From Escherichia coli (GTDB lineage: Bacteria; Pseudomonadota; Gammaproteobacteria; Enterobacterales; Enterobacteriaceae): a DNA stretch of 64,000 nt. A program made the translations under genes and the position numbers. Below, in pieces: positions 3,959 through 55,955 of the stretch. The stretch lies in assembly GCF_003334305.1 (NCBI RefSeq), contig NZ_QOWS01000001.1, one strand, 5' to 3'. The stretch's first letter is position 1. Every line of letters starts with the position of its first letter. The notes under the pieces are model-generated. The model ran no database searches, had not been told where the DNA came from, and worked only from the letters and a program-made list of their open reading frames with translations.

Positions 3959-3993
3959 GTTACGCGCCAATGCGGCCTCCGGCACTAACGCAA

Positions 3994-4018
3994 AAGGGAA
4001 CCTGATGGTTCCCTTTTT
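3994..4018 (+). terminator. Rho-independent terminator after fabB
   Basis: 9-bp perfect stem aagggaacc / ggttccctt with a 4-nt loop, followed by a T5 run. Confidence 0.7.
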
Positions 4019-25711: not shown

Positions 25712-27232
25712 TTAGTGGTAGCCCATCAACTGAGCGCCGATCACTACGACGCTGGACATAATAAACAGCAGTCCAAGTAGGGTCGCGCCCACCTTCAGCC
25801 AGTTACGGAAGTCCACCCTGCACACACCGAGAGTTGCCATTAACGAAGCTGAGGTTGGGTAAATGATGTGACTGAAGCCATCACCAAACTGGAATGCCAG
25901 CACGGTAACCTGACGGTTAACACCGACCAGATCGCCAAGCGGTGCCAGTAACGGCATGGTTAACGCCGCCTGACCAGAACCGGACGTCACGAAGAAATTA
26001 AATACCGCCTGGAAGAGCAACATAAACCAGGCCGCGACCGCGTTGTCCAGACCGCTAATGGCATTGGCAATGCTGTTGAGGATGGTATTTAACACGCTGG
26101 CATCACCCGCTTCACCATTACCGACCAGCAGCAAAATCCCTTTGGCGAAACCCACCAGCAGGGCAGGGGCGATCATCATTCGCGCCCCTTCGGTAAAGGA
26201 TGAAGCCATGGTATTAACCGTCATGCCGTTAAGGCGGAAAACAACGCCGATGATGCCAATCACCAGACCCATGGTGAAGAACTGGCTGGCAATTTCTGGA
26301 ATAAACCAGGCATTAACGATCACGCCCCAAATCACCCAGACCATTACGGCGGTCAGGACAATCAATACCAGCCAGTCACCAAAGGTAAACGGACGTTGTT
26401 CAACATCCGCCTGCTTTTCACGAAAGAAGCGGTCGGACTCATGCACGCGTGACAGAAGAGGATTCTTTTTCACTCGTGAGGCGTACACCATGGTAAAGAT
26501 CAGGCCAATCATAGTGGCGATAACCCACACCACGATGCGCAACCCGGAGCCAGAAAGCACCGGAACGCCGGCAATCCCCTGAGCAACGACCACACAAAAC
26601 GGGTTCATCCACGAACTGGCAAAACCGATTTGCGTGGCAATATAGGTCACCAGGACGGTGGTAATACTGTCATAGCCCAGCCGGACCATTAGCGGTGCGA
26701 TGATAATGGCAAAGGCGACGGCCTCTTCTCCCATACCAAATACCGCGCCGCCAAGTGAAAACAGAATAAACAGCGCAGGAATAAAGAGAATTTCATTCCC
26801 GCGGGTATGGCGAATAAGCGCCAGGATACCGTTATCAATGGTTCCTGTACGCATCACAATGCCAAACGCGCCGCCAATCACCAGCATAAACATGATGATG
26901 CCAACGGCTGTCCCGTATTTCGATCCTGAGGTTAATCCTTCAAACGGGAAGTTCATCAGGCCCGGGCGTTCATCGCCCGTCGTGAACAGCTGTACGCGGT
27001 GATACTCAGGTTCGCCTGCTTCGTTAGTCAGAATGCGAAATGAGTGTGGATCTACGACTTTGCGTGTTTTTGTTTGACCATCAACCTGATACTGCACTTC
27101 CTGACTGTCAAACATCCCCACCGGAACTACCCAGGTGGCAAGGCTGGTTAAAATAGCAACAAAAAAGATAATCACCAACGTATCGGGCATTGCCCATCTT
27201 CTTGTTGGTTTGGATTCAGTGATTGCGGACAT
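25712..27232 (-). CDS. yfcC: Inner membrane transporter YfcC
   Basis: Translation from MSAITESKPTRRWAMPDT… (506 aa), highly hydrophobic; the ORF-track start at 27253 is an upstream extension. Confidence 0.8.
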   Translation of the reverse strand: MSAITESKPTRRWAMPDTLVIIFFVAILTSLATWVVPVGMFDSQEVQYQVDGQTKTRKVVDPHSFRILTNEAGEPEYHRVQLFTTGDERPGLMNFPFEGLTSGSKYGTAVGIIMFMLVIGGAFGIVMRTGTIDNGILALIRHTRGNEILFIPALFILFSLGGAVFGMGEEAVAFAIIIAPLMVRLGYDSITTVLVTYIATQIGFASSWMNPFCVVVAQGIAGVPVLSGSGLRIVVWVIATMIGLIFTMVYASRVKKNPLLSRVHESDRFFREKQADVEQRPFTFGDWLVLIVLTAVMVWVIWGVIVNAWFIPEIASQFFTMGLVIGIIGVVFRLNGMTVNTMASSFTEGARMMIAPALLVGFAKGILLLVGNGEAGDASVLNTILNSIANAISGLDNAVAAWFMLLFQAVFNFFVTSGSGQAALTMPLLAPLGDLVGVNRQVTVLAFQFGDGFSHIIYPTSASLMATLGVCRVDFRNWLKVGATLLGLLFIMSSVVVIGAQLMGYH

Positions 27233-27348
27233 AGCGCAAATATTCCCTTGCACAAAACAAAGTGGTAAGTATGCAAAGTGAGATGGCGCAATTCATTGAT
27301 GCAGCGCAGTTAAGCAAGATAATCAGAAAGGATTAATGCAAATTAAGA

Positions 27349-27383
27349 GAATAAAAAACCGGAAATAGTGATTATTTCCGGTT
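27349..27383 (-). terminator. Rho-independent terminator downstream of pta (minus strand)
   Basis: aaccggaaata / tatttccggtt 11-bp stem followed on the minus strand by a U-rich run; a second perfect hairpin (atccgcagc-gcaaa-gctgcggat) sits at 27389-27411 immediately 3' of the pta stop. Confidence 0.6.
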
Positions 27384-27421
27384 CAGATATCCGCAGCGCA
27401 AAGCTGCGGATGATGACGAGA

Positions 27422-29566
27422 TTACTGCTGCTGTGCAGACTGAATCGCAGTCAGCGCGATGGTGTAGACGATATCGTCAACCAGTGCGCCACGGGACAGG
27501 TCGTTAACCGGCTTGCGCATACCCTGCAGCATCGGCCCGATGGAGATCAGGTCGGCAGAACGCTGTACCGCTTTGTAGGTGGTGTTACCGGTGTTCAGAT
27601 CCGGGAAGATGAACACGGTAGCGCGACCTGCAACCGGAGAGTTCGGCGCTTTGGATTTCGCAACGTCAGCCATTACCGCAGCGTCGTACTGCAGCGGACC
27701 GTCGATCATCAGGTCAGGACGTTTTTCCTGCGCCAGACGAGTTGCTTCGCGAACTTTTTCTACGTCGCTACCTGCACCAGAAGTACCGGTGGAGTAGGAG
27801 AGCATAGCAACGCGCGGTTCGATACCGAAGGCCGCAGCGGAATCAGCGGACTGAATCGCGATTTCTGCCAGCTGTTCAGCGGTCGGATCCGGGTTGATCG
27901 CACAGTCACCGTAAACGTAAACCTGTTCCGGCAGCAGCATGAAGAACACGGAAGATACCAGGGAGCTGCCCGGTGCAGTTTTGATCAGCTGCAGCGGCGG
28001 ACGGATGGTGTTTGCGGTAGTGTGAACAGCACCGGAAACCAGACCATCAACTTCATCCTGTTCCAGCATCAGCGTACCGAGCACCACGTTGTCTTCCAAC
28101 TGTTCGCGGGCAACGGTTTCGGTCATGCCTTTGTTCTTACGCAGTTCGACCAGACGACCAACATAGCTTTCGCGAACCACTTCTGGATCAACGATTTCAA
28201 TCCCTGCACCCAGTTCTACACCCTGAGACGCTGCAACACGGTTGATCTCTGCCGGATTACCCAGCAGTACGCAAGTTGCGATACCACGTTCAGCACAGAT
28301 AGCGGCTGCTTTAACGGTACGCGGTTCGTCACCTTCCGGCAGTACGATACGTTTGCCCGCTTTGCGCGCAAGTTCAGTCAGCTGATAACGGAACGCAGGC
28401 GGAGACAGACGACGGCTGCGCTCAGAAGTGGCAGTCAGAGATTCGATCCAGTCAGCGTTGATGTAGTTAGCAACGTATTCCTGAACTTTCTCGATACGCT
28501 CGTGATCGTCAACCGGAACTTCCAGGTTGAAGCTCTGCAGGCTCAGAGAGGTCTGCCAGGTGTTGGTGTTCACCATAAATACCGGCAGGCCGGTAGCGAA
28601 AGCACGTTCGCACAGTTTAGAAATGCGCGCGTCCATTTCGTAGCCGCCAGTCAGCAGCAGGGCACCGATTTCTACGCCGTTCATGGCTGCCAGGCAAGCG
28701 GCCACCAGCACGTCAGGACGGTCTGCGGAAGTCACCAGCAGAGAACCGGCACGGAAGTGCTCCAGCATGTGCGGAATGCTGCGTGCGCAGAAAGTGACGG
28801 ATTTAACGCGGCGAGTATTGATGTCGCCTTCGTTGATGATGGTCGCATTCAGGTGGCGAGCCATATCGATCGCACGAGTCGCGATCAGGTCAAAGCTCCA
28901 CGGCACAGCGCCGAGAACCGGCAGCGGGCTGGATTCTTGCAGCTTCGCCGGATCAACATTGTTTACTTTAGCTTTGGAAGAGTCGTCGAAAATCTCGGAC
29001 AGATCCGGGCGAGTACGACCCTGTTCATCAACCGGTGCGTTCAGTTTGTTAACGATAACGCCGGTGATGTTGGTGTTTTTGGCACCGCCGAAGCTGTTGC
29101 GGGTCAGTTCGATACGCTCTTTCAGCTGTTCCGGGGTGTCAGTGCCCTGAGACATAACGAAGACGATTTCCGCATTCAGCGTTTTAGCGATTTCGTAGTT
29201 CAGAGACTGGGCAAACTGGTGCTTACGTGTCGGGACCAGACCTTCAACCAGAACGACTTCAGCGTCTTTGGTGTTAGCGTGGTAGTTTGCGACGATCTCT
29301 TCCATCAGCACATCTTTCTGATTGCTGGAAAGCAGACCTTCAACGTAGCTCATTTTCAGCGGTTCAGCGGCCGTCGTGGTGGAAGAGTTCGCACGCACGA
29401 TAGTCGTAGTCTGATCGGGCGCATCGCCACCGGTACGCGGCTGAGCGATAGGTTTGAAAACGCTCAGACGAACGCCTTTGCGTTCCATTGCACGGATCAC
29501 GCCAAGGCTGACGCTGGTCAGACCGACGCTGGTTCCGGTAGGGATCAGCATAATAATACGGGACAC
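27422..29566 (-). CDS. pta: Phosphate acetyltransferase
   Basis: 714-aa translation matching Pta; GTG start. Confidence 0.95.
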
Positions 29567-29612
29567 GGTTTATCCTCTTTCGTTACCGCCGATTTGGCGG
29601 GTTACAAAACAG

Positions 29613-29635
29613 CACCGCCAGCTGAGCTGGCGGTG
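29613..29635 (-). other. ackA-pta intercistronic hairpin (10-bp perfect stem, 3-nt loop)
   Basis: caccgccagc-tga-gctggcggtg between the ackA stop and the pta start. Confidence 0.5.
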
Positions 29636-29640
29636 TGAAA

Positions 29641-30843
29641 TCAGGCAGTCAGGCGGCTCGCGTCTTGCGCGATAACCAGTTCTTCGTTGGTTGGGATAAC
29701 CACCGCAGGACGGGTACCTTCTTTGTTGATGAAACCAGATTTGCCGAAACGTGCAGCCAGGTTGCGTTCATGATCAACTTCAAAGCCCAGCACGCCCAGT
29801 TTGCCCAGAGACAGTTCACGAACCATCGCGGCATTTTCACCGATACCACCAGTGAATACAACAGCGTCCAGACGACCATCCATCAGCGCAGTGTAGGCAC
29901 CGATGTATTTCGCCAGGCGGTGGCAGTAAACGTCCATTGCGCGCTTCGCGTCTTCTTTCGTCGCGTAGTTGTCTTCAACATAGCGGCAGTCGCTGGTCAC
30001 TTCGGTCAGACCCAGCAGGCCAGACTCTTTGGTCAGCAGTTTGTTGATTGCGTCAACGCTCATGCCCAGGGTGTCGTGCAGGTGGAAGATGATCGCCGGA
30101 TCGATATCACCAGAACGGGTACCCATGACCAGACCTTCCAGCGGGGTCAGGCCCATAGAGGTGTCAACGCATTTACCGTTGCGGATAGCAGAAACGGAAC
30201 CACCGTTGCCCAGGTGGCAGGTGATGATGTTCAGTTCTTCTACCGGTTTGTTCAGCATTTTTGCCGCTTCCTGGGTTACATAGAAGTGGCTGGTGCCGTG
30301 CGCGCCGTAACGACGGATGCCGTGCTCTTTGTACAGGTTGTACGGCAGGGCGTAGAGGTAAGACTCTTCCGGCATAGTCTGGTGGAACGCGGTGTCAAAT
30401 ACAGCAACGTTTTTGTCTTTCAGCTGTGGGAAAGATTTCAGAGCTTCTTCGATACCGATCAGGTGAGCCGGGTTGTGCAGCGGTGCAAAAGAAGCTGCAT
30501 CTTTGATACCCTGAATAACAGACTCATCGATCACTACGGAGCTGGTATACTTTTCGCCGCCGTGTACGATACGGTGACCGATAGCAGTCAGCTGCGCAGA
30601 CAGTTCTGGTTTTTGTGCCAGAATAGTATTAACGATAAAGTTGAGCGCTTCGCTGTGAGCGGCGCCTGCACCTAAAGCCGCTTCCTGTTTATTGCCGTCC
30701 ATTTTCCATTTGATACGTGCTTCGGGCAGGTGGAAACATTCGGCTAAACCAGAAAGGTACTCTTCACCATTTACTGCATCGATGATGGCAAATTTCAGTG
30801 AAGAACTACCGCAGTTCAGAACCAGTACTAACTTACTCGACAT
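29641..30843 (-). CDS. ackA: Acetate kinase
   Basis: 400-aa translation matching AckA ([20 protein letters not shown]…). Confidence 0.95.
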
Positions 30844-31640: not shown

Positions 31641-32213
<573 letters not shown>

Positions 32214-52807: not shown

Positions 52808-54265
52808 ATGACAATAACTCCACAAAACCTGATCGCACTGCTACCGTTGCTGATCGTCGGCTTGACGGTGGTGGTTGTGATGCTCTCCATTGCGTGGCGA
52901 CGCAATCATTTCCTCAACGCTACGCTCTCGGTTATTGGGCTTAACGCGGCGCTGGTTTCGCTCTGGTTTGTCGGCCAGGCGGGCGCTATGGACGTTACGC
53001 CGCTGATGCGCGTTGATGGTTTCGCCATGCTTTACACCGGGCTGGTATTGTTGGCGAGCCTCGCCACCTGTACTTTCGCCTACCCGTGGCTTGAAGGCTA
53101 TAACGACAACAAGGATGAGTTCTACCTGTTGGTGTTAATTGCCGCGCTGGGCGGGATCCTGCTGGCGAATGCCAACCATCTGGCGTCTTTGTTCCTCGGT
53201 ATTGAACTGATCTCTTTGCCGCTGTTTGGCCTGGTCGGTTACGCTTTCCGCCAGAAACGTTCGCTGGAAGCCAGTATCAAATACACCATCCTTTCTGCCG
53301 CAGCGTCTTCTTTCCTGCTGTTTGGTATGGCGCTGGTGTATGCACAGTCTGGCGACCTGTCGTTTGTCGCGCTGGGTAAAAACCTCGGCGACGGTATGCT
53401 CAACGAGCCGCTGTTGCTGGCAGGTTTCGGACTGATGATTGTTGGCCTCGGCTTCAAACTCTCTCTGGTGCCGTTCCACCTGTGGACGCCAGACGTATAC
53501 CAGGGCGCGCCTGCGCCGGTTTCCACTTTCCTGGCGACGGCGAGCAAAATCGCTATCTTCGGTGTGGTGATGCGTCTGTTCCTCTACGCACCGGTGGGTG
53601 ACAGCGAAGCGATTCGGGTAGTGCTGGCGATTATCGCCTTTGCCTCTATCATCTTCGGTAACCTGATGGCGCTGAGCCAGACCAATATCAAACGTCTGCT
53701 CGGTTACTCATCTATCTCTCACCTCGGCTATCTGCTGGTGGCGCTGATTGCGCTGCAAACGGGCGAGATGTCGATGGAAGCGGTAGGAGTTTACCTGGCC
53801 GGTTATCTGTTCAGCAGCCTCGGCGCGTTCGGCGTGGTCAGCCTGATGTCCAGCCCGTACCGTGGCCCGGATGCTGATTCCCTGTTCTCTTACCGCGGTC
53901 TGTTCTGGCATCGCCCGATCCTCGCGGCGGTGATGACGGTGATGATGCTGTCTCTGGCCGGTATTCCGATGACGCTGGGCTTTATTGGTAAGTTCTACGT
54001 GCTGGCGGTCGGTGTCCAGGCACACTTGTGGTGGCTGGTGGGCGCCGTGGTTGTCGGTTCGGCAATCGGCCTTTACTACTACCTGCGCGTGGCGGTGAGC
54101 CTGTACCTGCACGCCCCGGAACAACCGGGTCGCGATGCACCGTCAAACTGGCAGTACAGCGCAGGCGGTATCGTGGTGCTGATCTCTGCACTGTTGGTAC
54201 TGGTGCTGGGTGTATGGCCACAACCGCTGATTAGCATTGTGCGGTTAGCAATGCCGCTGATGTAA
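52808..54265 (+). CDS. nuoN: NADH-quinone oxidoreductase subunit N
   Basis: 485-aa antiporter-like membrane translation. Confidence 0.95.
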
Positions 54266-54289
54266 GCTATCAGTTTGTAAGTCAGAAAG

Positions 54290-54317
54290 CCGCCGACATG
54301 TTCGGCGGTTTTTTTTG
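54290..54317 (+). terminator. Rho-independent terminator of the nuo operon
   Basis: ccgccga-catgt-tcggcgg stem-loop followed by a T8 run. Confidence 0.75.
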
Positions 54318-54331
54318 GTGCCCTGACACCA

Positions 54332-54835
54332 TCACCCAACAATAACCGTCAGCGCATGATTCCCTTGTCGCAGCATACGTCGATACGCGCTAATCAGCTT
54401 TTCCATATCAAGCATGATCGAAGCAAAGAGTTGCCCCTCTAACTCTTCTGAAAAGGTCACTCCCGGATAAATCTCCATTTCATTGAGTCGCTTAATGGAA
54501 AACTGTTTACGCAGCTCACTTCGATCCAGTGATTCCAGTCGGTCGATTGTCGCGGCTAACTCCTGATTCCAGGTCAATCCCAGGAAGCCATCTATGCCAT
54601 CTTCGAGGCTGTGTTCACCAAGCACGGCACGACTCAGCGGATCATTCTTCGCGGGATCAAAAGCAGAGGTGCCTGTCAGCCCAAAGTGTAAAAAATCCCA
54701 GCGTTTATCAATATCCAGTCGGCGTAATCCTGAAAGCGTGTCATGTATATTATCCATCAAAGGTTTTTCAGTAGACTCAAGCAGTTGGTTAATCTTTTCT
54801 GAGTCAATTTCTGCAAAATAACCAATCATTCCCAT
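54332..54835 (-). CDS. yfbM: DUF1877-family protein YfbM
   Basis: 167-aa translation matching YfbM. Confidence 0.8.
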   Translation of the reverse strand: MGMIGYFAEIDSEKINQLLESTEKPLMDNIHDTLSGLRRLDIDKRWDFLHFGLTGTSAFDPAKNDPLSRAVLGEHSLEDGIDGFLGLTWNQELAATIDRLESLDRSELRKQFSIKRLNEMEIYPGVTFSEELEGQLFASIMLDMEKLISAYRRMLRQGNHALTVIVG

Positions 54836-54960
54836 TTATTTTTCCTCCATTGAATTTTATGTTTCGCATCTTAAAACAGACGAGGGAAAATAAAATGTAC
54901 ATGTCGCTGTTTCTGGACCCGCCTCGAGAAATTTTTATTATTTACTGTTGTGTAACAAGG

Positions 54961-55567
54961 TTATAACACCATCTGAGCCATTTTCTGATAATTCAATCTG
55001 TCTGCTGTATCACCGGGCAAGTGGTATTGTTTATTACGATAAAAAGCGGTGTCAGTAATCATTACGGCGGGAATATCGTGTTGCCAATAATTCAGGTGGT
55101 CAGAGAAATCAATACCGGGAATAAACCATGGGGCATTCATAGAATAAACAGATAAATCCCGGGATGATAACAATGCCGTTTTTACCTGACGAACGGCGTT
55201 GATATCCTGTATTCTGCCGACCAGGCAATAAAGTCCCCCCGATCGGGATAAAGCCAGGACATTGCGGGTAAGGGTAATCCTGGCTACCAGGCGCAGAGTC
55301 GTAATAGCCAATCGGGGACGCCCTGCGCGGTAACTCTGGCACCGCTACTGACAAAGAACTCTTTTATATACTCTACGGACCTATTCAGATTATCAATATT
55401 GTCGGCATTACGTGGATGCACAGTTTGTGTAAGATAACGAACTGTTTTTTCTAATTGCTCAGGACTGACGTGTCGGGGCGTTGGCGATAATGCAGTGACC
55501 CAGGGTTGGTAAAAATAATCAGAGGGAGTGAAATCAGAAATAATATAACAAAAGGATTTTTTTTCAT
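54961..55567 (-). pseudogene. yfbL: Remnant of an M28-family peptidase gene (yfbL-like): frameshifted at an A8 run next to the ATG and internally shortened
   Basis: ATG at 55567-55565 is followed by an 8-nt A run and a stop after 38 codons. A different frame is open for about 95 codons (…SFCYIISDFTPSDYFYQPWVTALSPTPRHVSPEQLEKTVRYL…) but has no start. A third frame encodes a 116-aa M28-like C-terminus (…GIDFSDHLNYWQHDIPAVMITDTAFYRNKQYHLPGDTADRL…). Total span is about 600 bp, versus roughly 970 bp for the intact gene as I recall it. Confidence 0.6.
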
Positions 55568-55905
55568 ATATAAATTATCAATAAAAGACGTTATTTTATC
55601 ATTATTTATAATGAGTTATGAGTGTTTGTTTTATTACGGTTGTTAGATCTATACAAAAAGTATCTTTTACAGTGGCTTCGCTATTTTAAAAAGGAATTCA
55701 TATAAGGAAAAATATAATTATGTTATTTATTGGCAGATTGAGTTGACAGGGGGCAGAACTCTGAGGGTAAGAAAAGTCAGCAACAACAATCCACTACATC
55801 AACAGACCAGCAATCGCGTGCCGAGATACGCTGGAAATACCCGAAGATTGAACTGGCGGATGGTGTGACTGACATCAGTCAGTGATGACTTTTTAGCAAA
55901 CTATG

Positions 55906-55939
55906 TTCGACCAGTCAGCATATTTGCTGACTGGTCGAA
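55906..55939. other. Perfect 15-bp stem / 4-nt loop hairpin 17 bp downstream of the elaD stop
   Basis: ttcgaccagtcagca-tatt-tgctgactggtcgaa; likely a convergent or bidirectional terminator. Confidence 0.55.
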
Positions 55940-55955
55940 TTAATTAACTATGATG

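Follow-up and report, generated by a model that had tools for sequence, protein, structure and literature searches.

The 3' ends of elaD and yfbK in this Escherichia coli genome are separated by a long and perfect RNA hairpin, which is probably an ancestral, single-copy 3'-UTR stem-loop working at the RNA level as a transcript-end element, non-canonical as an intrinsic terminator. It is an ordinary inherited stem-loop that plays no visible part in the deletions found beside it. The palindrome spans 34 nt (55906-55939, strandless; TTCGACCAGTCAGCA-TATT-TGCTGACTGGTCGAA) of the window, i.e., the whole 64-kb stretch of DNA that was analyzed, and consists of two 15-bp arms and a TATT spacer. All 15 arm positions are complementary (15/15), and seven of the pairs are G-C. 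As RNA the hairpin is predicted to fold with -29.1 kcal/mol on the + strand (z = -8.2) and -29.7 kcal/mol on the - strand (z = -9.1), and none of 200 dinucleotide shuffles is as stable. No perfect hairpin in the window is longer; the runners-up have stems of 10-11 bp, and block shuffles of the window give 0.37 stems of at least 10 bp per window, with a maximum of 11 bp. The perfect 15-bp stem and tatt loop reported in the preliminary description are therefore borne out, far beyond what chance would produce.

The genes around the hairpin are arranged in the order nuoN (52808-54265, +), yfbM (54332-54835, -), a yfbL pseudogene (54938-55567, -), a yfbK remnant, the hairpin, an elaD pseudogene (55956-57176, -) with an in-frame stop codon at 56517-56519, rbn (57364-58299, -) and elaA. 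The strandless elaD-yfbK spacer is 70 nt long (55886-55955) and is bounded by the yfbK stop codon TGA at 55883-55885 and the elaD stop codon at 55956-55958 (-), which places the hairpin 20 nt past the former and 16 nt past the latter. The palindromes had been described as sitting where two convergent genes would have met, one of them now mostly missing; this holds, the genes being elaD and yfbK, with about 166 nt of yfbK left. Three adjoining genes, yfbL, yfbK and elaD, are dead in this strain (54938-57176), and the hairpin is therefore a leftover here, with no intact gene to serve.

Some further features of the region were recorded. The yfbL pseudogene carries a 326-nt internal deletion (junction 55313|55314) together with 1-nt indels. 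In the interval 54266-54331 nuoN is followed directly by yfbM, the yfbN-yfbO-yfbP genes that intervene in K-12 being missing; the B2 and O157-type loci examined lack them too. A weak sigma-70-like site (CTGACT-16-TATGAT, 9/12 matches; 55927-55954, +) overlaps the 3' arm of the hairpin and is directed antisense into elaD. Its -10-like TATGAT needs the T at 55950, which is an A in K-12 and nine other aligned strains, and such sites are no more frequent in the region than chance predicts.

The hairpin is present in strains whose neighboring genes are intact. In K-12-type genomes (J53, MG1655) a 1,728-nt yfbK and elaD converge on a 70-nt spacer, and the spacer holds an identical 34-nt palindrome, again 20 nt from the yfbK and 16 nt from the elaD stop codon, at 2,383,941-2,383,974 in MG1655. 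Among 5,426 complete E. coli genomes the 34-mer was found in 4,200, at one locus each; it is perfect in 3,718 genomes, has one mismatch in 461 and more in 22. Searches with the 70-nt spacer and with the 34-mer both return a single locus per genome, in 4,053-4,200 genomes. The yfbK remnant of the window type occurs in 2,580 genomes, leaving about 1,620 hairpin carriers without it; in the sampled carriers of this second kind yfbK is full-length, except for one in which it is disrupted by IS1. Strain KSC9 is 100% identical to the window across the compared kilobase. Comparison with the intact locus of other strains, which the preliminary description had named as a check, shows the hairpin to be ancestral and identical in K-12 and J53, and to be both older than the loss of yfbK and independent of it.

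What remains of yfbK in the window lies in three pieces on the + strand. The first (55720-55823) is a diverged 5' end of ~104 nt with 75-79% identity to intact alleles, whose reading frame is closed by an early stop codon. The second (55824-55846) is a 23-nt island corresponding to nt ~1455-1476 of K-12-type yfbK, with 19/21 to 21/23 matches to intact yfbK, and the third (55847-55885) comprises the last 39 nt with the stop codon, at ~98-100% identity to K-12. A remnant in three pieces implies two internal deletions, which together took ~1.56 kb from the gene. Their junctions are 55823|55824, 83 nt upstream of the large hairpin, and 55846|55847, which is 60 nt upstream of the large hairpin and 20 nt upstream of the small palindrome at 55866-55883. 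Both junctions show at most 1 nt of microhomology and contain no palindrome sequence. These junctions recur in each of the six remnant loci read, whose identity to the window is 93-100% (compared were L002, L005, L006, L007 and L009, with L012 and L015 at the right-hand junction; L002 is identical, at 100%, across the compared kilobase). Because the junctions are common to all remnant loci read, we infer from the alignments that the yfbK deletions were one old, inherited event.

These junctions bear directly on the suggestion that the palindromes were a hotspot that helped to create the deletion, through slipped mispairing or hairpin-stimulated breakage, and thereby cost the strain yfbK. The sole point in its favor is proximity: from the right-hand junction it is 20 nt to the small hairpin and 60 nt to the large one. 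However, both palindromes are untouched and identical to those of strains with intact yfbK, where they stand at the same distance from elaD; two internal deletions left a 23-nt island of yfbK between them, with hardly any microhomology; and junctions common to six remnant loci speak for one old event and not for recurrence. Among the loci examined there is no independent deletion ending within or beside 55866-55939, and the one other deletion haplotype, that of strain S1-ESP-02-A, removes the hairpin and has unrelated endpoints. Palindromes of 34 bp are, moreover, far shorter than the lengths that are unstable in E. coli. The locus thus resembles palindrome-associated deletion hotspots in having a perfect inverted repeat near a deletion junction, but differs from them in that the junctions fall outside the repeat, the repeat is intact and the event was single. 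The preliminary description had itself named such hairpins, at an unchanged distance from elaD beside an intact neighboring gene, as what would refute it, and by that criterion the hotspot is refuted. The suggestion is extremely improbable, and the comparison of deletion endpoints speaks against it.

The deletion in E. coli S1-ESP-02-A (L004 4150-4560) defines a fourth haplotype of the locus. It is a single deletion after which the region between yfbL and yfbK adjoins the first ~110 nt of elaD; yfbK, the hairpin and most of elaD are gone. A separate observation concerns the divergent promoter region between yfbL and yfbK, which together with both 5' ends is hypervariable (55500-55823). Its identity to K-12 and B2 alleles is 66-84%, with flanks at 94-100%, and even YDC107, which has the same yfbK remnant, reaches just 85-88% over 55500-55699. 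The variability could go back to an allele that diverged long ago, to recombination with DNA of another species, or to rapid decay.

The small palindrome (55866-55883, +) lies within the last yfbK codons, V-T-D-I-S-Q-stop, and is present in the intact gene too. It can be drawn in two registers, ACTGAC-ATCA-GTCAGT (55868-55883) or TGACTGA-CA-TCAGTCA (55866-55881). Its z-scores are -2.0 and -1.6, and 10 and 20 of 200 shuffles, respectively, fold as well. Perfect hairpins with 6 bp and a 4-nt loop number 28 in the window vs. 14 +/- 5 in shuffles, and the small hairpin is at chance level. It shares a CAGTCAG core with the large one. By our own estimate, the chance of a 7-mer being shared with a 34-nt palindrome within ~100 nt is roughly 0.17. 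The second hairpin and the shared gtcag core pointed out previously are thus both present, but neither exceeds chance. The heptamers CAGTCAG/CTGACTG occur 22 times in the window vs. 6.5 expected, and 9 of these 22 are in or beside the pta and ackA coding sequences (27101-30591). CAGTCAG was rejected as a motif family, the surplus coming mainly from pta/ackA coding sequence, where we take it to be a codon-usage effect (CTG-ACT-G) and no motif. Cross-pairing between the small and large hairpins was also rejected, 7 bp being no match for 15 bp; a fold of 55850-55960 retains the large stem.

Several traits of the large hairpin are those of a terminator. It is a stable, G+C-containing stem-loop within ~100 nt of a stop codon, and it is placed between two convergent genes, yfbK (+) and elaD (-) in K-12-type genomes and their remnants in the window. 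Its tails are different. No U-rich tract directly follows the stem on its 3' side: on a T-tract score of the d'Aubenton-Carafa type, the yfbK-sense (+) tail UUAAUUAACUAUGAU scores 2.29, a marginal value at about the 96th percentile of the window background, and the elaD-sense (-) tail CAUAGUUUGCUAAAA scores 0.64, i.e., has no U-tract. Scores of 3.4-5.2 are reached by the canonical terminators of this window, in several cases on either strand, and a consensus terminator scan did not call the large hairpin. The A-tract and T-tract that flank a bidirectional terminator are likewise missing, the flanks being AACTATG/TTAATTAA. By comparison, the bidirectional terminator at 3992-4017 is flanked by AAAAGGGAACC...GGTTCCCTTTT; a second comparator of this kind lies at 31658-31684.

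Bidirectional intrinsic terminators between convergent genes are said to have been described by Ju, Li and Liu in Nat Microbiol in 2019. The large hairpin is like them in its symmetry, in its 70-nt convergent spacer and in folding equally well on both strands, and unlike them in the missing A-tract and U-tract flanks and in that the K-12 tables checked contain no overlapping 3' ends. A scan of 100,044 species representatives with CCAGTCAGCANNNNTGCTGACTGG returned one match, in Enterococcus cecorum (NZ_ASWI01000003.1; L011 1229-1252), where the core CCAGTCAGCA-N4-TGCTGACTGG lies between convergent ORFs and is flanked by AAAAAAAAG and AAATTTT, a textbook bidirectional terminator. We judge the match itself to be due to chance, about 0.3 being expected in such a scan. 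No Escherichia representative matched; the E. coli representative may be B2-type, since B2-type genomes are without elaD. A canonical bidirectional intrinsic terminator, efficient for both elaD and yfbK, would agree with the position of the hairpin 16 and 20 nt from two convergent stop codons, with its very stable fold on both strands and with the E. cecorum example, in which the 10+4+10 core has A/T flanks and which makes the stem compatible with termination. However, the lack of an A-tract upstream and a U-tract downstream, the low T-scores and the negative terminator scan argue against it, as do three K-12 data sets, none of which maps a 3' end to the spacer, and a bicyclomycin-sensitive read-through region at the elaD 3' end (both described below). 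This interpretation is rather doubtful: of the bidirectional terminator proposed earlier, the convergent position stands, but the flanking tracts do not.

The published K-12 transcript-end maps were consulted at the corresponding MG1655 positions. Neither the Term-seq tables (PMC7815308) nor the SMRT-Cappable-seq tables (PMC6131387) contain a 3' end at 2,383,900-2,383,999, and the TRS table (PMC10687069) has no entry for elaD or the spacer. Mapping of RNA 3' ends had been named at the outset as a check on the hairpin, and in the published K-12 tables no 3' end falls on it. The missing ends could mean that elaD and yfbK are weakly expressed in laboratory culture. Adams et al. (2021; PMC7815308, Supplementary file 2) report a Rho termination region sensitive to bicyclomycin at 2,383,800 (+), within the 3' end of elaD; its Rho score is 3.6, and the windows of +/-800 nt used are too wide to assign it to the hairpin. 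The center of this region is 140 nt upstream of the hairpin, at a calling resolution of about 800 nt. Rho seems to contribute to ending elaD transcription. A second Rho region lies at 2,382,764 (-), antisense to elaD (PMC7815308). Reads antisense to elaD downstream of the hairpin are expected if the hairpin leaks, but could equally start inside elaD.

The other end of elaD's neighborhood offers a mapped example. Between rbn and elaD a further strandless hairpin (57322-57342; CAGGGC-N-GCCCTG; MG1655 ~2,382,550-2,382,571) served as a comparator. It has a T-score of 3.03 on the + strand and 0.0 on the rbn-sense strand, and it may chiefly stop antisense transcription leaving elaD. The primary 3' end of rbn has been mapped to 2,382,571, on this hairpin, which has no U-tract on that strand (PMC10687069). 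Hairpins of this U-less kind therefore mark stable 3' ends at this locus.

On the favored reading, the elaD/yfbK hairpin would act on RNA as a transcript-end element without being a canonical intrinsic terminator. In the yfbK sense (+), where UUAAUUAA comes after the very stable hairpin, the two together may bring about partial, hairpin-dependent termination. In the elaD sense (-), where there is no U-tract, the hairpin more probably pauses RNA polymerase or blocks 3'-to-5' exonucleases. A block to exonucleases would both define and stabilize the 3' ends of transcripts terminated by Rho nearby. Overall, the features of the hairpin suggest a pause site or a barrier to exonucleases rather than a terminator that works by itself. 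The closest known counterparts are the stem-loops that protect Rho-terminated 3' ends (Dar and Sorek 2018, PMC6061677). Shared with these are a stable, U-tract-less hairpin just past a stop codon, the bicyclomycin-sensitive region at the elaD 3' end and the rbn 3' end on a comparable U-less hairpin; the differences are that the K-12 tables checked contain no 3' end at the elaD/yfbK hairpin and that the Rho region, called at about 800-nt resolution, is not centered on it.

The distribution of the hairpin follows that of elaD. In B2-type genomes yfbK is intact and the elaD segment is missing, with 144 unrelated nt in its place. Alignment of B2 with K-12 loses homology ~25 nt before the yfbK stop codon and regains it 3 nt before the rbn stop codon. 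The strandless segment so delimited (~55859-57360 in the window) is ~1.5 kb long, takes in the final ~25 nt of yfbK, the large hairpin and elaD as well as the hairpin next to rbn, and has a GC content of 0.32-0.39 vs. about 0.5 in its flanks. In every case the lack of elaD goes with the lack of the hairpin. The lack of elaD at the B2 loci agrees with a published survey (PMC12575377), in which 66.6% of strains, none of them B2, had elaD. As judged from these alignments, the large hairpin evidently belongs to the ~1.5-kb low-GC elaD segment. The B2-type spacer between yfbK and rbn has a hairpin of its own, of unrelated sequence, with a 10-bp stem, -20 kcal/mol and z = -5.6; each haplotype therefore has its own stem-loop at this convergent site. 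The 144 nt of the B2 type also give YfbK another C-terminus (...GLAKDLDNSQN).

The hairpin might also be a hairpin-only element without a U-tract that acts as a two-way stop solely in a convergent context, through stalling of polymerase combined with collisions or Rho, and would then be a built-in insulator that arrived with the elaD segment. Termination by head-on collision has been proposed for convergent gene pairs in a preprint (bioRxiv 10.1101/2022.10.23.513370). This insulator reading is unlikely. If it were true, the hairpin of the horizontally acquired elaD segment would keep transcripts that leave this AT-rich island from reading through into rbn and yfbK.

The commonest variant of the stem among E. 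coli genomes is a G to A change at 55926, found in all three genomes sampled (3/3) from the 461 with one mismatch. In elaD-sense RNA this change gives a G-U pair, so that 15 pairs are kept at -28.9 kcal/mol, and in yfbK-sense RNA it gives a C-A mismatch. Rare variants either have their G-U pair on the opposite strand or simply lose the pair to a mismatch. In the L015 lineage, in which elaD is frameshifted, four uncompensated changes bring the stability down to ~-15 kcal/mol. No compensatory double substitution occurs among the aligned loci; E. coli sequences vary too little for covariation to be tested. Conservation of the hairpin is not clearly above that of its 36 flanking spacer nt. The 120 ElaD homologues listed with K-12 ElaD are all from E. 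coli and 99-100% identical.

These data also bear on the idea that the hairpin is a functionless passenger, a quasi-palindrome perfected by template-switch mutation and carried along with elaD. The lack of covariation and a conservation no better than that of the flanking spacer agree with this, and so does a stem that is perfect here despite two dead neighbors and has decayed in just one sampled lineage. However, the spacer of the elaD-less haplotype also has a strong hairpin, unrelated in sequence, and the adjoining rbn hairpin marks a mapped 3' end, which together are what use of stem-loops at these sites would predict. A pure passenger is distinctly unlikely.

Other identities were sought for the palindrome at the DNA level. 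It is not a member of a repeat family: the window has one copy even when up to 3 mismatches are allowed, and each E. coli genome that carries it has one locus. Plasmid collections yielded only chromosomal DNA filed as plasmids, and phage collections yielded none. The end of a mobile element was accordingly rejected, the palindrome being single-copy and found in neither plasmids nor phages. The hairpin presumably bears no resemblance to the REP consensus. With REP/BIME elements it has in common that it is an extragenic palindrome of ~35 nt in a 3' UTR between convergent genes, but it differs from them in occurring once per genome and in having no significant Rfam match. An Rfam search with 55400-56400 and E up to 10 gave only sub-threshold snoRNA and TarA noise, the best match being an irrelevant snoRNA model that scored 29 bits (E = 0.05), where the gathering score is 90. 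For REP elements themselves an action on 3' UTRs is proposed in a preprint (bioRxiv 10.64898/2026.03.23.713779).

Two candidates were considered in connection with the sequence around the stem. A 7-nt direct repeat, AACTATG (55899 and 55946), was rejected as a target-site duplication because the element is single-copy and because K-12 and most other strains have AACAATG in place of the second copy. The half-sites of typical operators are much shorter than the 15-bp arms. An LldR gSELEX peak is given as 'elaD > yfbK > yfbL' in older MG1655 numbering (PMC10272880); an LldR site was rejected, since the converted peak falls within yfbK at a distance of ~1.15 kb and the box given for it has another sequence. 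More generally, the palindrome might be a DNA-level element, whether a protein operator, a cruciform, or the scar or recognition site of the insertion of the elaD segment. The perfect two-fold symmetry across 34 bp is in line with this, as are its position 47 nt inside the left edge (~55859) of the segment and a TGGTC half-site in the arms that recalls GntR-family boxes, with the LldR peak in yfbK. However, it is single-copy, has no counterpart at the other end of the segment, is absent from plasmids and phages except for misfiled chromosome, and neither the position nor the box of the LldR peak corresponds to it. Such an element is very unlikely. Neither a DNA-level role nor the passenger reading has positive support.

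The useful outcome is a negative one, in that the palindrome is neither a deletion hotspot nor a textbook bidirectional terminator. As a further example of a 3'-UTR stem-loop at a convergent gene pair of E. coli, it matters little in itself. The haplotypes of the locus, in which yfbK is intact next to elaD, yfbK is a remnant next to elaD, elaD is lacking and another hairpin is present, or both genes are deleted, form a natural series for testing U-tract-less hairpins at convergent 3' ends.
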